Positions 13,613 through 56,745 of a stretch of DNA of 64,000 nt are shown piece by piece. Positions within the stretch are counted from its first letter, which is position 1; every line of letters begins with the position of its first letter. The notes under the pieces were generated by a model that was given only the letters and a program-made list of their open reading frames with translations, ran no database searches and was not told the DNA's origin. Both the position numbers and the translations under genes were made by a program. Origin of the DNA: Alphaproteobacteria bacterium (lineage in GTDB: Bacteria; Pseudomonadota; Alphaproteobacteria; DATDPM01); contig JAZGAE010000155.1 in assembly GCA_036475545.1 (NCBI GenBank), forward strand, positions 2,291 to 66,290, given 5' to 3'.

Positions 13613-13888
13613 CTACTTGAAGACGTACGGCAAGAGCGCCAGGAACCGGGCGCGCTTGATGGCTTTCGCGAGCTCACGCTGCTTCTTGCCGGAAACCGCC
13701 GTAATGCGGCTGGGCACGATCTTGCCCCGTTCGGAAAGGAAACGTTGCAGGAGCTTCAAGTCCTTGTAGTCGATCTTCGGCGCATGGGGCCCCGAAAACG
13801 GGCAGCTCTTGCGGCGCCGGAAGAATGGCCGCCGTGCCGCCGAGCCCCTCCGCTCACCCGGTCTTGCGGAACGCGGTCGGAATGCCAT
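13613..13888 (-). CDS. rpsR: 30S ribosomal protein S18
   Basis: 91 aa. Arg-rich N-terminus and the motif CPFSG...IDYKDLKLL...[12 protein letters not shown]. Confidence 0.9.
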
Positions 13889-14472
13889 TATGACTCGGCT
13901 CCTTCCGGTTCTTCCTGCTCGGTTGTGGCTTTGCCGACTTTTGTCTCTTCCGGTGTCTCTTTCGAGGGACCCGCTCCTTCCTTCTCTTCAACAGCGGTCC
14001 GCTTGCTCTTGTCGGTCGCTTCGCCGCGCTCCTCCTTGCTCTCGCGCCGTTCACGCTCTTCGCGGCCGTCGCGCCGTCCGCGTTCGTCGCGGCCATCGCG
14101 CCGTCCCCGTTCGTCGCGGCCGTCGCGCCGTCCCCGTTCGTCGCGGGACGCGCGGGACTGCATTACAACGGACGGACCGGTCTCGAGCTCGTCCACCCTG
14201 AGGGTGAGAAACCGCAGCACGTCCTCGTTGATCCGCATCTGGCGCTCCATCTCCTGGACCGCCGACCACGGAGCGTCGATGTTGAACAGGACGTAATGTC
14301 CCTTGCGGTTCTTCTTGATCCTGTAGGCGAGGCTCCTGAGCCCCCAGTGTTCCTTCTTGGTCACCTCGCCGCCGTTCTCCTTGACTACGGAGGCGAAGCG
14401 CTCCGCGAGGCCCTCGACCGCCGATGCCGAGATGTCCTGGCGCGCGATGAATACGTTTTCGTAATAAGCCAA
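13888..14472 (-). CDS. rpsF: 30S ribosomal protein S6 with a repetitive charged C-terminal tail
   Basis: N-terminus [13 protein letters not shown]. The TAA stop overlaps the rpsR ATG (TAATG). The C-terminus carries RDERGRRDG x3, encoded by a 27-nt tandem repeat. Confidence 0.9.
14054..14158 (-). repeat. In-frame 27-nt tandem repeat (about 3.9 copies) inside rpsF
   Basis: Units of cgttcgtcgcggcc(g/a)tcgcgccgtccc repeat head-to-tail from 14054 to 14158 and encode the RDERGRRDG repeats. Confidence 0.8.
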
Positions 14473-45917: not shown

Positions 45918-47750
45918 ATGCACCCCTACCGAACCCACACCTGCGGTGAGCTCAGGTTGGATCACACCGGCAGCAGGGCGCGGCTGTCGGGGTGGATTCA
46001 CCGCAAGCGCGACCACGGCCACCTGCTGTTCATCGACCTCCGCGACCACCACGGCCTTACCCAGTGCGTGATCGACGTCGGCAGCCCGCTGTTCGAGGAG
46101 GCCGAGGCGGCGCGTTCCGAAAGCGTGATCACGGTCACCGGCCCGGTGGTGGCGCGCGAGCCGGACACGGTCAATCCGCAGCTTCCGACGGGCGAAGTGG
46201 AGGTCCGGATCGAGGAGTTCACGATGATCTCGGCCGCCGATCAGCTGCCCCTTCAGGTCAGCGCCGAGGCGGAGACCAACGAGGAGCTTCGCCACCGCTA
46301 CCGTTACCTGGACCTCAGGCGCGAGAAGCTCCACAGGAATATCGTGCTGCGCTCCCGCGTCATCGCCGACATCCGCCGGCGCATGATCGAGGCCGGCTTT
46401 ACCGAGATCCAGACGCCGATCCTGACGGCCAGCTCGCCCGAGGGGGCGCGCGACTTCCTGGTTCCGAGCCGGATGCATCCGGGAAAGTTCTACGCCCTTC
46501 CCCAGGCCCCTCAGCAGTTCAAGCAGCTGCTCATGATCGCCGGGTTCGACCGCTATTTCCAGATCGCGCCGTGCTTCCGCGACGAGGCCAGCCGGGCCGA
46601 CCGCAGCCCGGGCGAGTTCTACCAGCTCGACGTGGAGATGTCGTTCGTGACGCAAGAGGACGTTTTCGCCGCGGTGGAGCCCGTGCTCGCCGGCGTGTTC
46701 GAGGAGTTCGGCGGGGGCCGCACGGTGAGCGCGCCGCCGTTTCCGCGCATTCCTTTCGCGGAGGCGATGCTGAAGTTTGGCAACGACAAGCCGGACCTGC
46801 GCAACCCGCTCTTGATCGCCGATGTGAGCGAGGCCTTTCGCGAGTCCAACTTCGCCATTTTCTCGCGGGCGATCGACGGGGGCGCGATGGTGCTCGCCGT
46901 ACCCGGCCCGGGCGCCGCGGCACGGCCGCGCAGCTATTTCGACAAGCTCAACGGGTGGGCGCGCGAGGAGGGCGCGCCCGGCCTTGGCTACATCACCTTC
47001 GCCGAGGGCGAGGCCAAGGGCCCCATCGCGAAGAACCTGGAGAAGCACCGCATCGAGGCCATCAAGAAGGCCGCCGAGGTTGCGGACGGCGACGCCGTGT
47101 TCTTCGTCTGCGACCATCCCCGAGTAGCCGCCAAGTTCAGCGCGGTGGTGCGGACCCGCATCTGCGAGGACCTGGATTTGCTGGAAAAGGACGTCTTCCG
47201 GTTCTGCTGGATCGTGGACTATCCGATGTACGAGCGCGACGAGACGACGGGGGAAATCAAGTTTAGCCACAACCCGTTCTCCATGCCCCAAGGGGGGCTC
47301 GAGGCGCTGGAGACCCAAGACCCTCTCGCGGTCAAGGCCTGGCAGTACGACATCGTCTGCAACGGGGTGGAGCTGTCGAGCGGCGCCATCCGCAATCACT
47401 CGCCCGAGGTGATGTACAAGGCTTTCGCGATCGCGGGCTACGGCAAGGAACAAGTGGAGGAACAGTTTGGCGGCCTGCTCAGCGCCCTGAAGTTCGGGGC
47501 CCCGCCGCACGGGGGAACCGCTCCGGGGATCGACCGCATGGTGATGCTGCTGGCGGACGAGCCCAACATCCGCGAGGTCATCGCCTTTCCGATGAACCAG
47601 CAGGCCCAGGACCTATTGATGCAGGCGCCCGCGCCGGTGAGTCCGGAACGGCTGCGGGAACTCCATATCCGAGTCCACTTGCCACCTCGCGCGGAAACCG
47701 GAGAGGCGGCCGAGTCCGAGACAGCGGAAGAGGCGCCTGCCGGCGAGTAA
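45918..47750 (+). CDS. aspS: aspartate--tRNA ligase
   Basis: The start [13 protein letters not shown] is at 45918. Class II motifs ([24 protein letters not shown]), and a GAD insertion domain is present. Confidence 0.9.
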
Positions 47751-47794
47751 GGGGCACGCCGGCCGGCGGCGATCAGGTCAGGAGAACACATGTC

Positions 47795-48682
47795 ATGACG
47801 TTAGGGCCACGCAAGCGCCAACCGCTCGGTTCCGTCGCGGGTGCGGAAAAAACAGCGGCGGAGCCCGTCCGCCGGCTGCTTTGCGCCGCGCTCGCCGCCG
47901 TCACCGGCCTGGGTTTCCTGTTCGCGGCTTCCAACGGGTCCGCCGCGCCCGTGGGATTCATTCCTCATCGGGCCTATTACGGCTTGACCATGCATTCGGT
48001 TGCGCCGGGGAGCACGATCACAGACATCCGCGGCGCCTTGTTCGTCGAATGGATAGAGGGCTGCGAGGGCTGGAGTTCTTCCCAACGGCTGAAGCTACGG
48101 CTGTTCGACACGACCAGGCCCATGATCGAAGCAGAGACCCGGTTCGCGAGCTGGGAGTCCAATGACGGGCTCACATACAATTTCAATTTGCAGAACCTGC
48201 GCCAGGGCATTGTCAACAAGGAACTCGGCGGGCGGGCGTCGCTGCGGGGCGAGGGGATGCCGGGAACGGCGGAGTTCGTCGCGCCCAGGGGGCTGCGCTT
48301 CGAGCTGCCGGCCGGGACGATCTTTCCGATGGTTCACCTCAAGGAGCTGATCGAGGCCGGGGGCGCCGGTGAGAAGGTGGTCTCCCGCATCATCTTCGAC
48401 GGCACCACCGAGGAGGGGCCGTTCGAGATCAACGCCGTGATCGGGCCGCGCCGGCCGCCGGAGACGGGCGCGGTTAGCTTGCCGGCCCCGGCGCGCGGCC
48501 CGTCCTGGCTCATGCGACTCGCTTTCTTCCGTCTCGAGACCAACGAAGTCCTGCCGTTTTACGAGATGAGCGTGCAGCTTCTGGAAAACGGCATTGGCGC
48601 CGGGTTCTTTCTCGATTACGGGGACTCGGTCATCCGGGCCGAGCTGCAGCGGATCGAGCTCCTGCCAAGGGCCTCCTGCTGA
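47795..48682 (+). CDS. DUF1849 family periplasmic protein (EipB-like)
   Basis: 295 aa with a signal peptide (LLCAALAAVTGLGFLFAASNGSAAP). Family assignment is by recollection only. Confidence 0.4.
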   Translation: MTLGPRKRQPLGSVAGAEKTAAEPVRRLLCAALAAVTGLGFLFAASNGSAAPVGFIPHRAYYGLTMHSVAPGSTITDIRGALFVEWIEGCEGWSSSQRLKLRLFDTTRPMIEAETRFASWESNDGLTYNFNLQNLRQGIVNKELGGRASLRGEGMPGTAEFVAPRGLRFELPAGTIFPMVHLKELIEAGGAGEKVVSRIIFDGTTEEGPFEINAVIGPRRPPETGAVSLPAPARGPSWLMRLAFFRLETNEVLPFYEMSVQLLENGIGAGFFLDYGDSVIRAELQRIELLPRASC

Positions 48683-49097
48683 GGCCGTGCCGCCGCGCCA
48701 GACTGCCCGCCCCCGGCGGGCAACCGCGGCTCGGGAGAATCGGACCCGGTGTCCGGCAAGACGGGCACGACTCCCCCTATCCTTACGGACAGGATTGGTG
48801 GGTGCGTGGCCGGGAGCCGTCCCCAACAACCGCATGAGAGACTGGCGATCCACGCGGTTCATGCTATTTTCCGGTCCGCGGAGCGCCGCAAGGACCGCCG
48901 GACAGGGGCCGGTGGCGCCAAGATGCGGCTTACGAATAATTAACCGCTAGGGGCTACAAGGGGAATGGTCGCACATTGGTCAGGGGTCCGCTTTGTGCCG
49001 ACGGTCCCGAGGGGTCATGGTCTGTCGCCGGCTAAATCCTGCCCGCCGCCGGAAGCCCCCTTTCACACGGCGCTATGACCGTAGCTAGGAAGGACGG

Positions 49098-49463
49098 ATG
49101 CCGAAAACTGTTCTCATCGTCGAAGACAACGACCTCAACATGAAGCTGTTCAACGACCTGCTTGAGGCCCACGGTTACAAGACGCTTCAAACGAAGGACG
49201 GACGGGAGGCGTTGGAACTGGCGCGCAAGCATCACCCCGATCTCATCCTCATGGACATCCAGCTTCCCGAGGTTTCCGGTCTGGAGGTGACCAAGTGGAT
49301 AAAGGAGGATGAGACCCTGAAATCGATACCGATCATCGCGGTGACGGCATTCGCCATGAAGGGGGACGAGGAGAAGATCCGCGAAGGTGGCTGCGAGGCC
49401 TATATGGCGAAACCGATTTCCGTCGTGGGCTTTCTCGAGACCATAGAAAAATTCGTGGGTTGA
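49098..49463 (+). CDS. divK: single-domain response regulator DivK
   Basis: 121 aa. Motif [12 protein letters not shown] with the phospho-acceptor Asp in ILMDIQLP. It sits immediately upstream of a PleD-type gene. Confidence 0.8.
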
Positions 49464-49469
49464 TCATCG

Positions 49470-50912
49470 ATGTCGGCACGGGTTCTGGTTGTTGACGACG
49501 TTCCGGCGAACGTCAAGCTGCTGGAAGCGAAGCTGACGGCCGAATATTTCGACGTCATAACGGCCCCCGACGGCCCGTCCGCACTGGCAGCCGCCGAGAG
49601 CGAGTTGCCCGACATCATATTGCTCGACGTGATGATGCCCGAGATGGACGGCTTCGAGGTCTGCCGGCGCCTGCGGGAAAACCCCCGGACCGCGCACATT
49701 CCCGTCGTCATGGTCACGGCGCTCAGCGAGGTTTCCGACCGCGTCCAGGGGCTCGAGGCGGGGGCCGACGATTTCCTCACCAAGCCGGTCAACAACATGG
49801 CGTTGTTTGCCCGCATCAAATCCCTGGTGCGGTTGAAGATGACCATGGACGAATGGCGCCGGCGCGAGGAGACGTGCGACCGGTTCGGCGTTCTTTCCGA
49901 CGGACGCCTGCCGGCCCGGGAAGACGCTTCGGAGGCCCGTGTGCTCGTGGTGGAGACTGGCGAGTCGCGCGGCGATTGGATCGCCAAGGCCTTGGCGCAG
50001 GACGGGGACGAACTCACGACCGCCCCGGGGGCCGAGGCCGGAATCGAGTTGGCGCGAGACGGGGCTTTCGATCTCATCATCACCGATGCGACCGCTTCGG
50101 GCGAGGCGGACGGCGATCCGCTGCGCCTTTGCTCGTCGCTCCGTTCGATGGAGGAATGCCGATCGGTTCCCATCCTCATCATGGTGGAGGCGAACGAGGT
50201 GGAACGCCTGGCCAAGGGGCTGGACCTGGGCGTCAACGATTACATCGTGAAGCCGATGGATCCCCACGAATTATTGGCGCGGGTGCGCACCCAGGTTCGC
50301 GGCAAGCGCTACCAGGATCGGCTTCGCGCCAATTTCGAGCGCAGCCTGTCAATGGCGCTCACCGATAACCTGACCGGCCTCTACAACCGGCGCTACATGG
50401 ACGTCCATCTCGGCACCATGATGCAACGCATGGTCGAAGAGGGCCGGCCCTTGGGCCTGCTCATGATCGATATCGATTTCTTCAAGTCCGTGAACGACCG
50501 ATACGGCCACGGGGTGGGCGACGAGGTCTTGTTCCAGATGGCGAAACGCATCTGCGGCTGCGTCCGCGGCTTCGACATGGTCGCTCGACACGGCGGCGAA
50601 GAGTTCGTCGTCGTGCTCCCCGGAGCGCCCCCCGAGGTTATCCACGGAGTCGCCGAACGTCTTCGGCACGCCATCGCCGAGGAGCCATTCCCTGTTTCCG
50701 ACGCCGTCGGAAAGATCGAGGTCTCGGTCAGCGTCGGCGCCGCCATGGTGGAAGGCCCCGGCGACGCGCCCAAGTCGCTCCTCAAGCGGGCCGACATGGC
50801 GATGTATCAGGCCAAGCGCCAAGGCCGCAATCGTGTGATTGCCGACTTCGATTACGACGAAGACGTAACCTCTGAATCGGCCACGCCGCAGAAACTCTCG
50901 GCCGTTTCCTAA
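49470..50912 (+). CDS. pleD: response regulator / diguanylate cyclase PleD (REC-REC-GGDEF)
   Basis: Two receiver domains followed by a GGDEF domain with a GGEEF active site (RHGGEEFVV) and an I-site RxxD. Confidence 0.85.
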   Translation: MSARVLVVDDVPANVKLLEAKLTAEYFDVITAPDGPSALAAAESELPDIILLDVMMPEMDGFEVCRRLRENPRTAHIPVVMVTALSEVSDRVQGLEAGADDFLTKPVNNMALFARIKSLVRLKMTMDEWRRREETCDRFGVLSDGRLPAREDASEARVLVVETGESRGDWIAKALAQDGDELTTAPGAEAGIELARDGAFDLIITDATASGEADGDPLRLCSSLRSMEECRSVPILIMVEANEVERLAKGLDLGVNDYIVKPMDPHELLARVRTQVRGKRYQDRLRANFERSLSMALTDNLTGLYNRRYMDVHLGTMMQRMVEEGRPLGLLMIDIDFFKSVNDRYGHGVGDEVLFQMAKRICGCVRGFDMVARHGGEEFVVVLPGAPPEVIHGVAERLRHAIAEEPFPVSDAVGKIEVSVSVGAAMVEGPGDAPKSLLKRADMAMYQAKRQGRNRVIADFDYDEDVTSESATPQKLSAVS

Positions 50913-51002
50913 ACCGATGCATTAAGACGGGCGACCCCTCGGGCGCGGTCGAGCTTACCGCTGCCCAGCGGTGCCGGGGCCGTCGAGAGGCACGCCCCGG
51001 CC

Positions 51003-51170
51003 CTATTTGATCCTGGATTCCTTGAAAAGAACGTGCTTGCGCGCGACCGGGTCGTACTTGCGGAGCTGCAGCTTGTCGGTGAGCGTCCGCGGGTTCTTCT
51101 TGGTCACGTAAAAGTAGCCGGTGTCGGCGGTACTGACCATCTTGATGAGGATGGTGGTGGGTTTGGCCAT
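51003..51170 (-). CDS. rpmG: 50S ribosomal protein L33; absent from the ORF track (55 aa)
   Basis: Hand translation: [58 protein letters not shown] at 51168-51170 and TAG at 51003-51005. Confidence 0.9.
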
Positions 51171-51217
51171 CGCGCGTTCCAGCCTCGCACAGAAGAGAAT
51201 TTCAGGGCGCAGAAGAT

Positions 51218-51330
51218 ACCCGCCGGAGGGGACCTGTCAACCCCGCCGGAGGGGACCTGTCAACCCCGCCGGAGAGGACCTGTCAACCCCGCCGGGGGGA
51301 ACCTGTCAACCACGGCGGGGATGGACGCCT
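51218..51330. repeat. Tandem array of about 4.5 copies of a 23-nt unit (ACCCCGCCGGAGGGGACCTGTCA) between ctpA and rpmG
   Basis: Copies at 51218-51239, 51240-51262, 51263-51285 and 51286-51308, plus a degenerate fifth. Each unit contains the near-palindrome CCCCGCCGGAGGGG. Confidence 0.85.
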
Positions 51331-51377
51331 GGCGCGGCCAGCGGAGCCTTCGCGCGCTCGCGGCCGGCCGCGCCGCC

Positions 51378-52988
51378 TCAACGTGTGGCCACGGCCGGGA
51401 AAGAGAGCTGCAAGGCGCGGGCGTAGAGTTCCGCGTCGCCAAGCAGCTTCCGCGTCACCTCCAGGTCGGCCTCCGGCATGCTGTGACGGGACGGGCAGAC
51501 CCGCCGCAGCTCCTCGCTCGTCTCCCGGTCGCGCCCCTGATCGCCGCGCGAGAGGGCGAGGGTGGATCCCGGCTCGGCCGCGCCGCGAAGCAGGTCGTCC
51601 ACCGCGCCGGGCGCCGAGGTCTGCGGGTTGCTGGTGCAGATCGTCGGTGCCACGCCCAGCTCGTGGAGCACCTGGCCGGAGGGCGCATGCATGCGAGACC
51701 AGGTCAAGATCAACTCCCCGTTGTTGGGGAGCCGGATGACGTTCTGCACCGTTCCCTTGCCGAACGAGGTGCTGCCGATCACCAACGCGCGGCCGTGGTC
51801 TTGAAGGGCCGCGGCGACGATCTCTGCGGCCGAGGCGGATTGCCCGTTGATGAGGACGGCCATCGGCAGACCGTTGGCAATATCATCGTCCGTGGCGTCG
51901 AATTCCTGGTTGCTGTCGGGATGGCGGCCGATGGTCGAAAGAATCCGCCCGCGGGAAAGGAAGAGGTCGGCGACGGCCACCGCCTGGTCGAGCAGGCCGC
52001 CAGGGTTGTCCCGCAAATCCAGGACCACTCCCGCGATCTCCGCCTCCTGCTTCAGCTGCGAGAACGCATCGGAGACTTGGGTGGTCGTGCGCTGATTGAA
52101 GCCGATGACGCGAAGGTATGCGAGGTCCCCTTCGAGGCGGGCCTCTACCGTAGTGGGGATGATGAGTTTGCGCGCGAGGGTTAGCTTCAGCGACCCTTCG
52201 AGGCCGGTGCGGGCGAGGGTGAGCTCCACGCGCGAGTCCACCCGCCCGCGCAGGCGCCGTGCGACCGCGCGGTGGTCGAGGCCGGCGACCGGGGCGCCGT
52301 CCACATGGGTAATCAGATCGTCGGCCTGGATGTCCGCCCGCGCCGCCGGCGAGTCCGGAAGGACTGCCGTGACTTGCACGCCATCCCCCGCCAACGCGAA
52401 GCGGATGCCGATCCCGCCGAACCCCTCGCGGGCGGCGCGCTGCTCGAGCGCCTCCTCGGCGCCGGTGTACCGCGAAAACCCGTCCAGCCGGGAGAGAGCC
52501 CCCTCGAACACCACCTGATAAAGCCTTTCCGTGGAGGCATATTCGAGGTGAGGAGAACCCGCCCGACCGGCATCCAAGGCTATCGCGGTGAGCTTCGCCC
52601 ACCCGGCCGCGTCCGCATCGTCGGGCGCGTCGAGCTTGGCGAGGACCCCGTCGGGGCCACGAAGCTCCACCAGGTCGCCGTTGCGCGCGACGGAGATCCC
52701 CGAATCCAGCGTAGACAGTCCCGAAAGTCCCTCGAACGCCACGGTTCCGATGTCAACGGGGTCGACGTAGCGCTCGGTGATGGATTGGTATCCCACCGCA
52801 AACACCCGCCCTACCTCGCCGGCCGGGAATGCGTCGCCGGACCGTTGGCCGGGCGTGGCGCAGGACACCAATGCGGCCGGGACCAGCAGGGCAAGGGAAA
52901 GCCGTTTGAGCGCGGCCACCGGCGCCCCAGTGGATCGGCGGAAACGGCCCCGGATCTTCGCGCCACGGGCTATCTGGGCCCCCATCAT
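51378..52988 (-). CDS. ctpA: S41 family C-terminal processing peptidase
   Basis: PDZ domain followed by an S41 domain (DLRDNPGG, GQSASAAEIVAAAL, FGKGTVQ). The likely start is the ATGATG at 52985-52988; the track extends to 53222. Confidence 0.75.
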   Translation of the reverse strand: MMGAQIARGAKIRGRFRRSTGAPVAALKRLSLALLVPAALVSCATPGQRSGDAFPAGEVGRVFAVGYQSITERYVDPVDIGTVAFEGLSGLSTLDSGISVARNGDLVELRGPDGVLAKLDAPDDADAAGWAKLTAIALDAGRAGSPHLEYASTERLYQVVFEGALSRLDGFSRYTGAEEALEQRAAREGFGGIGIRFALAGDGVQVTAVLPDSPAARADIQADDLITHVDGAPVAGLDHRAVARRLRGRVDSRVELTLARTGLEGSLKLTLARKLIIPTTVEARLEGDLAYLRVIGFNQRTTTQVSDAFSQLKQEAEIAGVVLDLRDNPGGLLDQAVAVADLFLSRGRILSTIGRHPDSNQEFDATDDDIANGLPMAVLINGQSASAAEIVAAALQDHGRALVIGSTSFGKGTVQNVIRLPNNGELILTWSRMHAPSGQVLHELGVAPTICTSNPQTSAPGAVDDLLRGAAEPGSTLALSRGDQGRDRETSEELRRVCPSRHSMPEADLEVTRKLLGDAELYARALQLSFPAVATR

Positions 52989-53254
52989 GGCTCGATCAAA
53001 CCACCGCTTCGTCGTGATTCCGCTGCGCGTGAGGGCCGCCACCCGTCCCCGCCTCATCCGGCCGGCGGCCCCGCAAACGCGGATCGTTGCATCCTTCACC
53101 CGAGGCATCAAGGCGCGCGTGATACTGGGCAACGCAAAGCGCTCCTTGGCGCCACGCCACGGCGGCGAAACGCGCTCTCTCGAAGGCAAGGAACCGTGTG
53201 AGTCATGGGTCGCTGGGAGCATCTCAGCTTCGCTGGGGCTGATTCTTGTAACCG

Positions 53255-53305
53255 CTATGCCATGAATTCATCAAATTATTTTTAATTTTGTGTTACCAGC
53301 CGGGC
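53255..53305. promoter_or_regulatory. the lowest-GC stretch in the window (ccatgaattcatcaaattatttttaattttgtgttaccagcc); a candidate divergent promoter region between ctpA and the hydrolase gene
   Basis: Composition only. Confidence 0.2.
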
Positions 53306-53432
53306 CGCCGACACTGATACTTGCGATATACCTGGGCATGGGACTCAAACTGCCGCGATGCGCTCGCCCGCCGGGGCGGCGGCCGCGGCCCCCTGGCCCT
53401 GGTGCCTTGGTATAGGCCGCGGCACGACCTCG

Positions 53433-54344
53433 ATGACGACAGCGACTCCGCAAGAAGCAAGCGAACAAGGGCGCCCGGCGTGGCTGCCGGAGCGTCTCTT
53501 CCCGTTTGAGAGCCGTTTCCTGGCGATAGACGGCGGGCGCCTGCACTATATCGACGAAGGCGCGGGGCCGGTGCTGTTGCTGTTGCATGGCAACCCCACC
53601 TGGTCCTTCCTCTACAGGGACATCGTCCGCGGCCTCTGCCGCAGCTTCCGTTGCGTCGCGCCCGATTATCCCGGGTTCGGGCTGTCGCGGCCGCCCGGAG
53701 GCTACCGATTCACACCGGCGGAGCATGCCGCGGTCGTGGAGCGGCTCGTGGTCGAGCTCGACCTCAAAGGGGCAATCCTGATGGTGCAGGACTGGGGCGG
53801 TCCCATCGGGCTGGGCGTGGCCGGCCGCCATCCGGCGAGGTTCCGCGGCCTGGTGATCGGGAACACCTGGGCGTGGCCGGTGAACGGCGACCCCCACTTC
53901 GAGTGGTTTTCGCGGCTCATGGGCGGGCCGCTCGGGCGGTTCGCGATTCTGAATTTCAACGCGTTCGTGAACGTGCTGCTGCCAGCCGGAGTGCGGCGCA
54001 CGAAGCTCGCCCCCGAAGTCATGGCCGCATACCGGGGTCCGTTTCCGGACAGGGGCTCTCGACGTCCGACCCACGTGTTCCCGCGCGAGATCATCCAGAG
54101 CCGGGCCTTCCTGGAGGAAGTGGAGGAGGGGCTCCCGAGGCTGCGGCACTTGCCGGCCCTCATACTCTGGGGTGACAGGGACTTCGCCTTCCAGGAGAAG
54201 GAGCGTCGCCGGTTCGAAACGCTCTTCCCGGATCACCGCACCCATATCTTGCGCGGCGCCGGCCATTTCATTCAAGAGGACGCGGCGGACGAAATCTGCG
54301 CCGAGATCGGGGCCTGGTGGAAGGACCGCTTCGGCGCCGGGTGA
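53433..54344 (+). CDS. alpha/beta hydrolase, haloalkane dehalogenase-like
   Basis: Motifs HGNPTWSFLYR, nucleophile elbow VQDWGGPIG, and a C-terminal His (GAGHFIQED). Alternative start: ATG at 53358. Confidence 0.7.
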   Translation: MTTATPQEASEQGRPAWLPERLFPFESRFLAIDGGRLHYIDEGAGPVLLLLHGNPTWSFLYRDIVRGLCRSFRCVAPDYPGFGLSRPPGGYRFTPAEHAAVVERLVVELDLKGAILMVQDWGGPIGLGVAGRHPARFRGLVIGNTWAWPVNGDPHFEWFSRLMGGPLGRFAILNFNAFVNVLLPAGVRRTKLAPEVMAAYRGPFPDRGSRRPTHVFPREIIQSRAFLEEVEEGLPRLRHLPALILWGDRDFAFQEKERRRFETLFPDHRTHILRGAGHFIQEDAADEICAEIGAWWKDRFGAG

Positions 54345-54480
54345 CAGGCGAAAGCATCCGCCGGCCGCCGCGGATCGCGCGAGCCGGCGCCGCGCCTCAT
54401 GGCTCCCTTGGCTCTTGGCGGGAAGGACGGCAAGCAGTGGGCGGCGGGTGCGGCCCCTGGCCCCCGCCCCACGGGCGGGG

Positions 54481-56745
54481 CTATCGCCGACCCCTTATCC
54501 GGGTGGCGCGCTTTTTTCGGGCGGGCGTCCCGCGGCGTCCTGGCGGCTTGGGCGCTCCCTTGCGGCGCGCGGTCTCGGCGGGGCCGGCGAGGTGGCCCAC
54601 GATCTCGAACACGAGGCCGCCGGTGACCGCGTCGGCCTCGATCAGCTCCACCTCCGTCGCGTCACCGAGGGTGAACGTTCGTCCCGAGCGGCGGCCGATG
54701 AGCGAATGGCGGCCTTCGTCGTGGACGTAGTAGTCATCCTGGAGCGACCGGATGGGCACCAGCCCGTCGGCCCCCGTCTCGTCGAGGGTGACGAAGAGGC
54801 CGAACCGGGTGACGCCGGCGATGCGGCCCCAAAAGGTGGCGCCGACGCGATCCTCGAGATAGGCGACGGTGTAGCGGTCGAGCGCGTCGCGTTCGGCGGC
54901 GACGGCACGCCGCTCGGAAGCGGAGACGCGCTCGCCGATCTCGGCGAAACGGGCGCCCTCGTCGGGGCCGAGCCCGCCCCGACCCAGGCCAAGCCCCGCG
55001 ATCAGCGCGCGGTGGACGAGGATGTCGGCATAACGCCGGATCGGCGAGGTGAAATGGCAGTAGCGCCTGAGCGCGAGCCCGAAATGGCCGATGTTCACCG
55101 GCGAATAGACGGCCTGGGCCTGGGCCCTCAGGATCAGCCCGCTCACCAGGTGCTCGTGCCCCAACGCCTCCGCCTGGCGCATGATCCGCGTGAAATGGCG
55201 GGCCCGGATCACCTGGCCCCTGGCGAGCCGGTAGCCCAGTCCTTCGAGGAATTCGCGCAAGGCCTCCACCTTGGCCGGGTCGGGCGTGTCGTGAACGCGG
55301 TACATGCAGGGCTGGCGCACGGCTTCCACGCTTTCCGCCGCGGCCACGTTGGCCGAGATCATGAACTCCTCGATGAGGCGGTGGCTGTCGAGGCGGGGCT
55401 CGGGAGAGAGCCTCGCGATTTTCCCGTCGGGCGCGAAGACCACGCGGCGCTCGGGAAGATCCAGTTCCAGGATGCCGCGCCGGCGCCGCGCCTCGAGAAG
55501 GGCGGAGAAGACGCCAAACAACGGCACGATCACGGGCCCCACCAGGGGCCCGGTGAGATCGTCGGGGCGCCCGTCGTGGGCGGCCTGCACCTGCTCGTAG
55601 GTCAAACGCGCCGCCGAGCGCATGAGGCCGCGCTCGAACCGGTGGCGCAGCTTGTTGCCGTCGGCATCGATCCAGATGTGCACGGCCAGGCACGCCCGGT
55701 CCTCGCCGGGGCGCAGCGAGCATAGTCCGGCCGACAGGGCGTCGGGCAGCATGGGCACCACCCGGTCGGGGAAATAGACCGAGTTGCCGGGCTCGTAGGC
55801 GCACTCGTCGAGGGCGTCGCCGGGCCGTACGTAATGGGCGACGTCGGCAATGGCGACGAGGACGTGCCAGCCTCCGGGGTTGTCGGACTCGGTGTCGGAT
55901 TCCGCCCATACCGCGTCGTCGAAATCGCGGGCGTCGGGCCCATCGATGGTGACCAGCGGAACCCGGCGAAGGTCGGTGCGCCCCCTTGGCCCACAGGGCC
56001 GGGCGGCATCGGCCTGGGCGATGGCCTCGTCCGGGAACTCGACGGGGATGTCGTGACTGTGGATGGCGATGAGGCTTATGGCGCCGGGCTCGTCGGCATG
56101 CCCGACCCGCTTGAGCACCTTCGCGCGCCGCTGGCCGAAGCGGCGGCGGCCGGGCAGGATCTCGGCCTCCACAAGCTCGCCCGAACGGGCCCCGCGCGTG
56201 TCCGCCGGGGCGATGAAAAAGTCGCTCTTGTGGCGGCGGTCGGTGGAGCGCAGCTGCCCGCCCTCGGGCAGGGGGCCGAAGACGCCCAGGATCCGCTGCG
56301 GGCGGCCCGCGATGAGGCGGATGACGCGGCCCTCGTAGACACCGTCCGGGCCGCGCCTGAGCCGCGCCAGCACCCGGTCGCCGAGGCCGATCGCAGGCGC
56401 CCCTCGCCGCTCCGGCGCCAAGTAGATGGTCGGCGGCGGCGCCTCCGCGCGCCAAACCACGGGGCGGGCGAGAAGCTCCCCGTCGGCGTCGATGGCGGAA
56501 ACCTCGATCACCGCCACTTCGGGCATCTCGCCCGGCCGCCTCAGCTTGCGGCCGCGGCCGCGGTCCACCAGCCCCTCGTCCGCCAATTCCTTCAAGAGCC
56601 GCTTGATCTCGGCCCGGTCCGCGCCCCGGAGGCGGAAGGCCCGGGCGATCTCGCGCTTGCCCACCGGACCCGGGCTTTCGCGGATGAAAGCGAGAATCTC
56701 CTCCTTCGTCGGTAAAGAGGGGCGGGCCGTGGGGCGCTTGGGCAA
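54481..56745 (-). CDS. rnr: ribonuclease R
   Basis: 754 aa. Cold-shock domains, RNB catalytic domain (DGPDARDFDDAVW), S1 domain, and a basic C-terminal tail. Confidence 0.9.
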   Translation of the reverse strand: MPKRPTARPSLPTKEEILAFIRESPGPVGKREIARAFRLRGADRAEIKRLLKELADEGLVDRGRGRKLRRPGEMPEVAVIEVSAIDADGELLARPVVWRAEAPPPTIYLAPERRGAPAIGLGDRVLARLRRGPDGVYEGRVIRLIAGRPQRILGVFGPLPEGGQLRSTDRRHKSDFFIAPADTRGARSGELVEAEILPGRRRFGQRRAKVLKRVGHADEPGAISLIAIHSHDIPVEFPDEAIAQADAARPCGPRGRTDLRRVPLVTIDGPDARDFDDAVWAESDTESDNPGGWHVLVAIADVAHYVRPGDALDECAYEPGNSVYFPDRVVPMLPDALSAGLCSLRPGEDRACLAVHIWIDADGNKLRHRFERGLMRSAARLTYEQVQAAHDGRPDDLTGPLVGPVIVPLFGVFSALLEARRRRGILELDLPERRVVFAPDGKIARLSPEPRLDSHRLIEEFMISANVAAAESVEAVRQPCMYRVHDTPDPAKVEALREFLEGLGYRLARGQVIRARHFTRIMRQAEALGHEHLVSGLILRAQAQAVYSPVNIGHFGLALRRYCHFTSPIRRYADILVHRALIAGLGLGRGGLGPDEGARFAEIGERVSASERRAVAAERDALDRYTVAYLEDRVGATFWGRIAGVTRFGLFVTLDETGADGLVPIRSLQDDYYVHDEGRHSLIGRRSGRTFTLGDATEVELIEADAVTGGLVFEIVGHLAGPAETARRKGAPKPPGRRGTPARKKRATRIRGRR

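Follow-up and report, generated by a model that had tools for sequence, protein, structure and literature searches.

A promoter-derived variable-number tandem repeat upstream of rpmG in an uncultured alphaproteobacterium

The locus lies in a 64-kb stretch of alphaproteobacterial DNA (64,000 nucleotides), and the window denotes the whole of that stretch. It comprises the spacer between a gene for an S41 family peptidase and rpmG, the gene for ribosomal protein L33, together with the two genes. The gene identities given in the original prediction hold, as L33 corresponds to PF00471 and the upstream gene carries PDZ and Peptidase_S41 domains in conspecific gene calls. The peptidase has 554 aa as called in a conspecific contig, and its longest open reading frame extends to 53222. 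Past rpmG, divK and pleD are located on the plus strand in convergent orientation. As had been described, the two neighbours are encoded on the minus strand, and the array between them should therefore be read on that strand. The features of the locus are as follows, in the direction of transcription.

51378 to 53042, minus strand: S41 family C-terminal processing peptidase, 'ctpA'-like, with PDZ and Peptidase_S41 domains
51324 to 51379, minus strand: GC-rich stem-loop of ~19 bp directly after the S41 stop codon, from folding
51310 to 51320, minus strand: degenerate partial unit, CCCCGCCGTGG in the window
51218 to 51309, minus strand: four full 23-nt units, each TTGACA plus a 17-nt G+C-rich segment, from Tandem Repeats Finder, the shuffled pattern search and unit parsing
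51309 to 51287, minus strand: unit U1, TTGACAGGTTCCCCCCGGCGGGG
51286 to 51264, minus strand: unit U2, TTGACAGGTCCTCTCCGGCGGGG
51263 to 51241, minus strand: unit U3, TTGACAGGTCCCCTCCGGCGGG+G/T
51240 to 51218, minus strand: unit U4, TTGACAGGTCCCCTCCGGCGGG+G/T
51235 to 51240, minus strand: predicted functional -35 hexamer TTGACA in the rpmG-proximal unit, from the promoter scan and the invariance of TTGACAG in seven lineages
51213 to 51218, minus strand: -10 hexamer TATCTT, 16 nt past the TTGACA of the proximal unit and just beyond the repeat
51003 to 51170, minus strand: rpmG, ribosomal protein L33 (PF00471), 55 aa, without the Cys motif

Tandem Repeats Finder reports the array at 51219-51318 with a period of 23, 4.3 copies, 92% matches, 0 indels and a score of 165, which is the second-highest among the tandem repeats of the window. 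Four units follow each other head to tail with 0, 0, 1 and 2 mismatches to the consensus CCCGCCGGAGGGGACCTGTCAAC, and the pattern search gave no match to the unit in 100 shuffles. The 23-nt array that had been described from the letters is therefore real and far above chance. Its G/A variant and its CCCC...GGGG near-palindrome are both present in the sequence, and the gap of 48 nt to the rpmG start is correct, with the array ending at 51219 and the ATG beginning at 51170. The outer boundary needs correction: the array had been drawn to 51330, whereas the array proper stops at 51318, with the degenerate half unit reaching to about 51320. It had also been placed directly downstream of the ctpA stop, but 59 nt intervene (stop codon at 51378-51380), and they hold a separate GC-rich hairpin. 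Most importantly, the earlier reading was on the plus strand and missed the key feature, which is that on the rpmG strand all units begin with TTGACA; the unit in this orientation is TTGACA followed by GGTCCCCTCCGGCGGGG. The units are longer than 10 bp and abut head to tail without spacers, as expected of a variable-number tandem repeat (VNTR), and the array is accordingly not CRISPR-like, as previously stated. At the distal edge, the partial unit reads CCCCGGCGGGG or CCCCGCCGGGG in other alleles (L003-L007, L010), a difference which indicates that this edge of the array is also evolving.

A search for other instances of the 23-mer had been suggested. The pattern search found no further copy in the 64 kb outside the array. 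In viral contigs the unit had no match, and BLAST gave no similarity to plasmid records; within these collections, therefore, it does not occur as a dispersed or mobile element. Metagenome contigs gave two matches; the two carry near-identical versions of a single coding stretch in an unrelated context and were taken as chance. We also compared the unit with several known elements. A REP/MITE-like dispersed repeat or a CRISPR was rejected given the lack of another copy in the window and the abutting, spacer-free units. The other candidates were compared by eye: a Pho box requires an 11-bp period, and the unit does not fit the alphaproteobacterial LexA pattern GTTC-N7-GTTC, the CtrA pattern TTAA-N7-TTAAC, GANTC methylation sites, DnaA boxes, parS, or RpoH or ECF promoter patterns.

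Every unit opens with a perfect sigma-70 -35 hexamer, and a -10 hexamer follows the proximal unit only. The promoter scan of the surrounding 1 kb returned TTGACA-N16-TATCTT (51240-51213, 10/12 matches) as the sole match and no second promoter in the array region. After the TATCTT comes a G+C-rich discriminator, CTGCGCCC. The G+C content of the window is 67.8%; TTGACA occurs 14 times in it on both strands, four of these inside the array, and the combination TTGACA-N16/17-TATNNT occurs once in the whole 64 kb compared to 0.02 expected. At the corresponding -10 position of the upstream units, the sequence reads GTTGAC, TTGACA or TGACAG, without the A at position 2 and the T at position 6.

In order to see which parts of this region are conserved, we used the orthologous S41-rpmG spacers of six lineages, whose S41 peptidases are 70, 62, 61, 56, 55 and 52% identical to that of the window, and aligned them with the single-copy conspecific allele L003 (seven lineages). 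The order S41 - rpmG - pleD is found at four of the relative loci, one of which (L012) has divK and an EipB-like gene as well; the L011 contig ends past rpmG, and L013 has only a GGDEF gene in that place. In the seven-lineage alignment TTGACAG is invariant and preceded by GGGG or GGGC, the spacing of 16 nt between -35 and -10 is conserved, and a TAnnnT -10 is kept in the variants TATCTT, TATCCT, TAATGT and TATTGT, followed by a G+C-rich GGCGxCCC discriminator. The 16-nt spacer and all DNA upstream of the -35 diverge freely. Thus the two hexamers lie 16 nt apart upstream of rpmG and are conserved while their surroundings diverge, as in a sigma-70-type promoter, and this phylogenetic footprint supports TTGACA-N16-TATCTT as the predicted rpmG promoter. 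None of the six relatives has a tandem array; instead, a single copy occupies the corresponding position in each.

Outside the species, the S41 peptidase most similar to that of the window reaches only 70% identity, and the contig of the window is absent from the public contigs found to encode the identical L33, which suggests that the organism is a poorly sampled alphaproteobacterium. The named homologues of the peptidase come from MAGs of Alphaproteobacteria, Rhodospirillaceae and Kiloniellaceae and do not exceed 50% identity, and an exact peptide-word scan of genome contigs gave two distant homologues only, labelled as Ruminococcus and Helicobacter MAGs.

Within the species, the number of units differs between contigs at this position. 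Five conspecific contigs were obtained by exact look-up of the L33 protein and one more by a 98%-identical S41 peptidase. Their DNA identity to the window is 98.7-99.5% over 1.3-8 kb, and on this basis they are conspecific. The unit counts are given below; they come from short-read metagenome assemblies, where 23-bp repeats can be collapsed or miscounted, and are possibly under-estimates.

L003 (NCBI GCA_044240385.1): 1 unit, which in particular could be a collapsed array
Window: 4 units
L005 (JGI 3300037247): 9 units
L007 (JGI 3300043256): at least 7 units, as the contig begins inside the array
L004, L006 and L010 (Logan ERR10503087 / ERR10503086): contigs break inside the array, with at least 2 units in ERR10503086

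The copy-number comparison that had been suggested thus gives different numbers (1, 4, at least 7 and 9 units) at the same position in near-identical contigs and a single copy in the six relatives, which bears out the VNTR option among the roles first listed. The sample is small (5-6 independent contigs), and in it the copy number varies at one locus while the flanks are conserved in the short-read assemblies. The proximal junction GCGGG|TATCTT is identical in every allele, and in all six alleles the last TTGACA is 70 nt from the rpmG ATG and the spacing between -35 and -10 is 16 nt. The unit spacer occurs in variants such as TTCCCT, TCCCCT, TCCTCT, TGCCCG and GTCCCT. L005 and L007 have three proximal units in common and differ in their distal units. 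Since unit sequence differs between the alleles as well as unit number, a single array counted in different ways does not account for them, and they represent distinct alleles. Across the 23 units, substitutions occur only at unit positions 9, 10, 12, 14 and 17. Position 23 deviates solely at the junction of the proximal unit with TATCTT, and no unit shows a change in TTGACAGG or GCGGGG.

The array is therefore a minisatellite (VNTR) built from the -35 box and spacer of the rpmG promoter. As to how it arose, two copies of the 8-nt sequence CCGGCGGG form a direct repeat around the -35 box of the single-copy allele, exactly 23 nt apart, and the partial unit at 51310 to 51320 corresponds to the upstream member of this repeat. 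The 8-nt repeat is found only in this species, whereas the longest such repeat in the six relatives is 4-6 nt and rarely lies at the 23-nt offset. The G-runs immediately 5' of the -35 and of the -10 are a conserved promoter feature in the seven-lineage alignment. In this species they happen to form part of a longer repeat, of a length that would permit slipped-strand mispairing, and replication slippage or unequal recombination between the CCGGCGGG copies would then give a 23-bp duplication. After the first duplication, the array could expand and contract in the population. The unit consists of TTGACA, the 16-nt spacer and one base, with TATCTT just outside. Because the -10 lies outside the unit, each allele regenerates the same TTGACA-N16-TATCTT and the same distance to the start codon. 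RNA polymerase would use the proximal TTGACA together with TATCTT in all alleles and presumably start rpmG transcription at the same site. The extra units are orphan -35 boxes at about -58, -81, -104 etc. with no usable -10, and rpmG transcription would be expected to depend little or not at all on their number. The stretch between the promoter and the S41 3' hairpin, in which the relatives have no conserved element, appears to be permissive and to accommodate the array.

The structural parts of this explanation are close to certain. Judged from the sequence comparison, a slippage origin, a single active promoter and near-neutrality of the additional boxes are most likely, and the joint statement, namely a promoter-derived VNTR made by slippage with one active promoter and near-neutral orphan -35 boxes, is in our view the probable account of the locus.

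An alternative that we regard as unlikely is that the orphan -35 boxes tune rpmG, either as docking sites or a sink for region 4 of the RNA polymerase sigma factor, or because each added unit displaces the DNA upstream by 23 bp (about 69 degrees); in both cases L33 expression would follow copy number, as at a contingency locus or rheostat. Such tuning would be consistent with the perfect -35 consensus in all 23 units, where substitutions are confined to the spacer part, with the hypervariability of the locus within one species, and with precedents for promoter-region repeats that change expression (PMC12817950, PMC8262952). However, the invariance of the hexamer as a sign of selection on the orphan boxes is not statistically significant (~7 variant types, p about 0.1). 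Units without a -10 add no complete promoter, nothing is conserved upstream of the -35 in relatives and hence there is no activator site to displace, and a housekeeping gene for a ribosomal protein is an unlikely target of stochastic switching. The specific proposal that the orphan -35 array acts as a copy-variable docking or decoy rheostat for polymerase, giving strain-specific and rapidly reversible control of L33 expression, seems to us quite unlikely; such a rheostat would be made of a promoter fragment instead of complete promoters or altered spacer lengths.

It is very unlikely that the units are binding sites, that is, a transcription-factor or iteron-like array recognising the near-palindrome CCCCTCCGGCGGGG or a TGTCA motif. 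The regular direct repeats with a 14-nt near-palindrome would suit such a reading, and the 23-bp period is close to that of plasmid iterons. The near-palindrome, on which the first reading had laid stress, and the spacer around it are unconserved in all six relatives, while the -35 and -10 are conserved. Alleles contain anything from 1 to 9 or more units. A phased array had been proposed with the period taken as about two helical turns, but 23 bp corresponds to 2.2 turns, so that successive units rotate around the helix and are not on one face; the phased reading is not supported on these grounds. An iteron role is further opposed by the lack of plasmid-record similarity and of a further copy in the window, and by the neighbouring genes, which are the S41 peptidase, L33, PleD and DivK, with no replication gene nearby.

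Two of the roles first listed for the array, a terminator stack and a structured rpmG leader, are at the RNA level. An element of this kind would be either a stack of small hairpins that terminates or insulates transcription of the S41 gene, or a structured intercistronic or leader RNA of rpmG. Each unit can indeed form a 4-bp CCCC/GGGG stem, and the whole array can pair as a long imperfect hairpin of -55.9 kcal/mol. Nevertheless, when the spacer, a single unit and both strands of the array (as RNA and as DNA) were folded, nothing stood out from shuffles apart from the stop-proximal S41 hairpin: the unit hairpin of -6.6 kcal/mol is worse than shuffles (z +0.9), the z values of the array are -1.5 and -1.0 when folded as RNA and -0.4 and -0.8 when folded as DNA, and that of the whole spacer is -1.1. 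We found no site resembling an intrinsic terminator (GC-rich hairpin and U tract) in the array, which goes against a terminator stack. A leader role is disfavoured by the position of the array upstream of the -10, which leaves it outside the rpmG mRNA derived from the predicted promoter, and by Rfam, which gave no match in the array region at E<=1 and none at gathering score across the 64 kb. The relatives and one allele exist without the array, and a separate hairpin already follows the S41 stop codon. An RNA-level role is thus highly improbable. The separate stem-loop (51324-51379) has -39.9 kcal/mol, a z value of -2.0 and no U tract; the folding suggests that it is likely the 3' end structure of the S41 mRNA, for which it is a better candidate than the array, and it may be a U-less terminator or a structure that stabilises the 3' end of the mRNA.

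The least probable alternative is misassembly of the array or of its copy-number differences. Tandem repeats of 23 bp are difficult for short-read assemblers, and the three Logan contigs are interrupted within the array. However, besides the window, at least four independent assemblies of different origin contain it, with unit variants that are distinct and partly shared (the three proximal units of L005/L007).

Tandem copy-number variation of promoter DNA is documented in bacteria (PMC12817950). The closest described kind is that of the promoter tandem repeats (PTRs / VNTRs) of Mycobacterium tuberculosis upstream of dop, lpdA and cysG, whose unit is described as a promoter copy (57 bp for dop) and for which changes of promoter strength have been proposed (PMC12817950). 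Both systems have promoter DNA repeated head to tail immediately upstream of a gene, with copy number varying among close strains and the variation attributed to strand slippage or recombination. Unlike those repeats, the 23-bp unit here holds the -35 and spacer only and lacks a -10, so that complete promoters stay at one instead of increasing with each unit; the gene downstream is a housekeeping one, encoding a ribosomal protein, and the host is an uncultured alphaproteobacterium.

Phase-variable promoters with simple sequence repeats (SSRs) are a second point of comparison. In Neisseria and Bordetella, repeats are located between the -35 and -10 elements. In Haemophilus influenzae, 7-bp repeats in the promoter region of hmw1A cause phase variation (PMC8262952). 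As in these, the tract here abuts or overlaps promoter hexamers and is hypervariable, presumably by slippage. The SSR units are 1-9 bp and change the spacing between -35 and -10 or the length of the 5' UTR, and hence expression, whereas the unit here is 23 bp, the spacing stays at 16 nt in all alleles and the tract is outside the predicted transcript. Neither altered spacing nor altered 5' UTR length was seen in the six alleles.

Intergenic bacterial minisatellites serve in MLVA typing. The array shares with them a fixed intergenic locus, a unit of 10-100 bp, conserved flanks and variable copy number, and does not differ from them in kind, apart from a unit that is recognisably a predicted functional promoter part. 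It has all the properties of an intergenic bacterial VNTR, and what is particular to it is that its geometry spares the core promoter. The array has an ordinary explanation, and nothing in it contradicts current understanding.

The locus is a worked example of how an apparent regulatory array, terminator or leader can be a probable slippage amplification of a promoter's own -35 and spacer, which was resolved at once when the array was read on the strand of the downstream gene. It also indicates how a promoter may tolerate a hypervariable repeat, with the -10 outside the unit and the core promoter restored each time. If copy number does affect L33 expression, the natural alleles of 1, 4 and 9 units would form a test series for orphan -35 boxes and polymerase recruitment. 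Strains of this uncultured alphaproteobacterial species could also be typed by means of the locus.

Some further observations were made on the surroundings. The gene order RNase R - (alpha/beta hydrolase) - S41 peptidase - rpmG - pleD - divK - EipB-like - aspS is conserved in the clade (window 47000-55200; L003, L011-L016). In this species an alpha/beta hydrolase gene lies between RNase R and S41 (both genes are seen in L003), and L011 also has a hydrolase gene upstream of S41; in L014-L016 there is no hydrolase gene and RNase R adjoins S41. No tRNA, rRNA or riboswitch was detected in the 64 kb at the Rfam gathering score. The top-scoring tandem repeat of the window is at 14042-14146 (period 27, 3.9 copies, 91% matches, score 168). 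It is located in frame towards the 3' end of rpsF, the gene for ribosomal protein S6 (13888-14472, minus strand), where it encodes a repeated RDERGRRDG motif within a long charged C-terminal tail, so rpsF is a second ribosomal protein gene with a minisatellite in the window, in this case a coding one.
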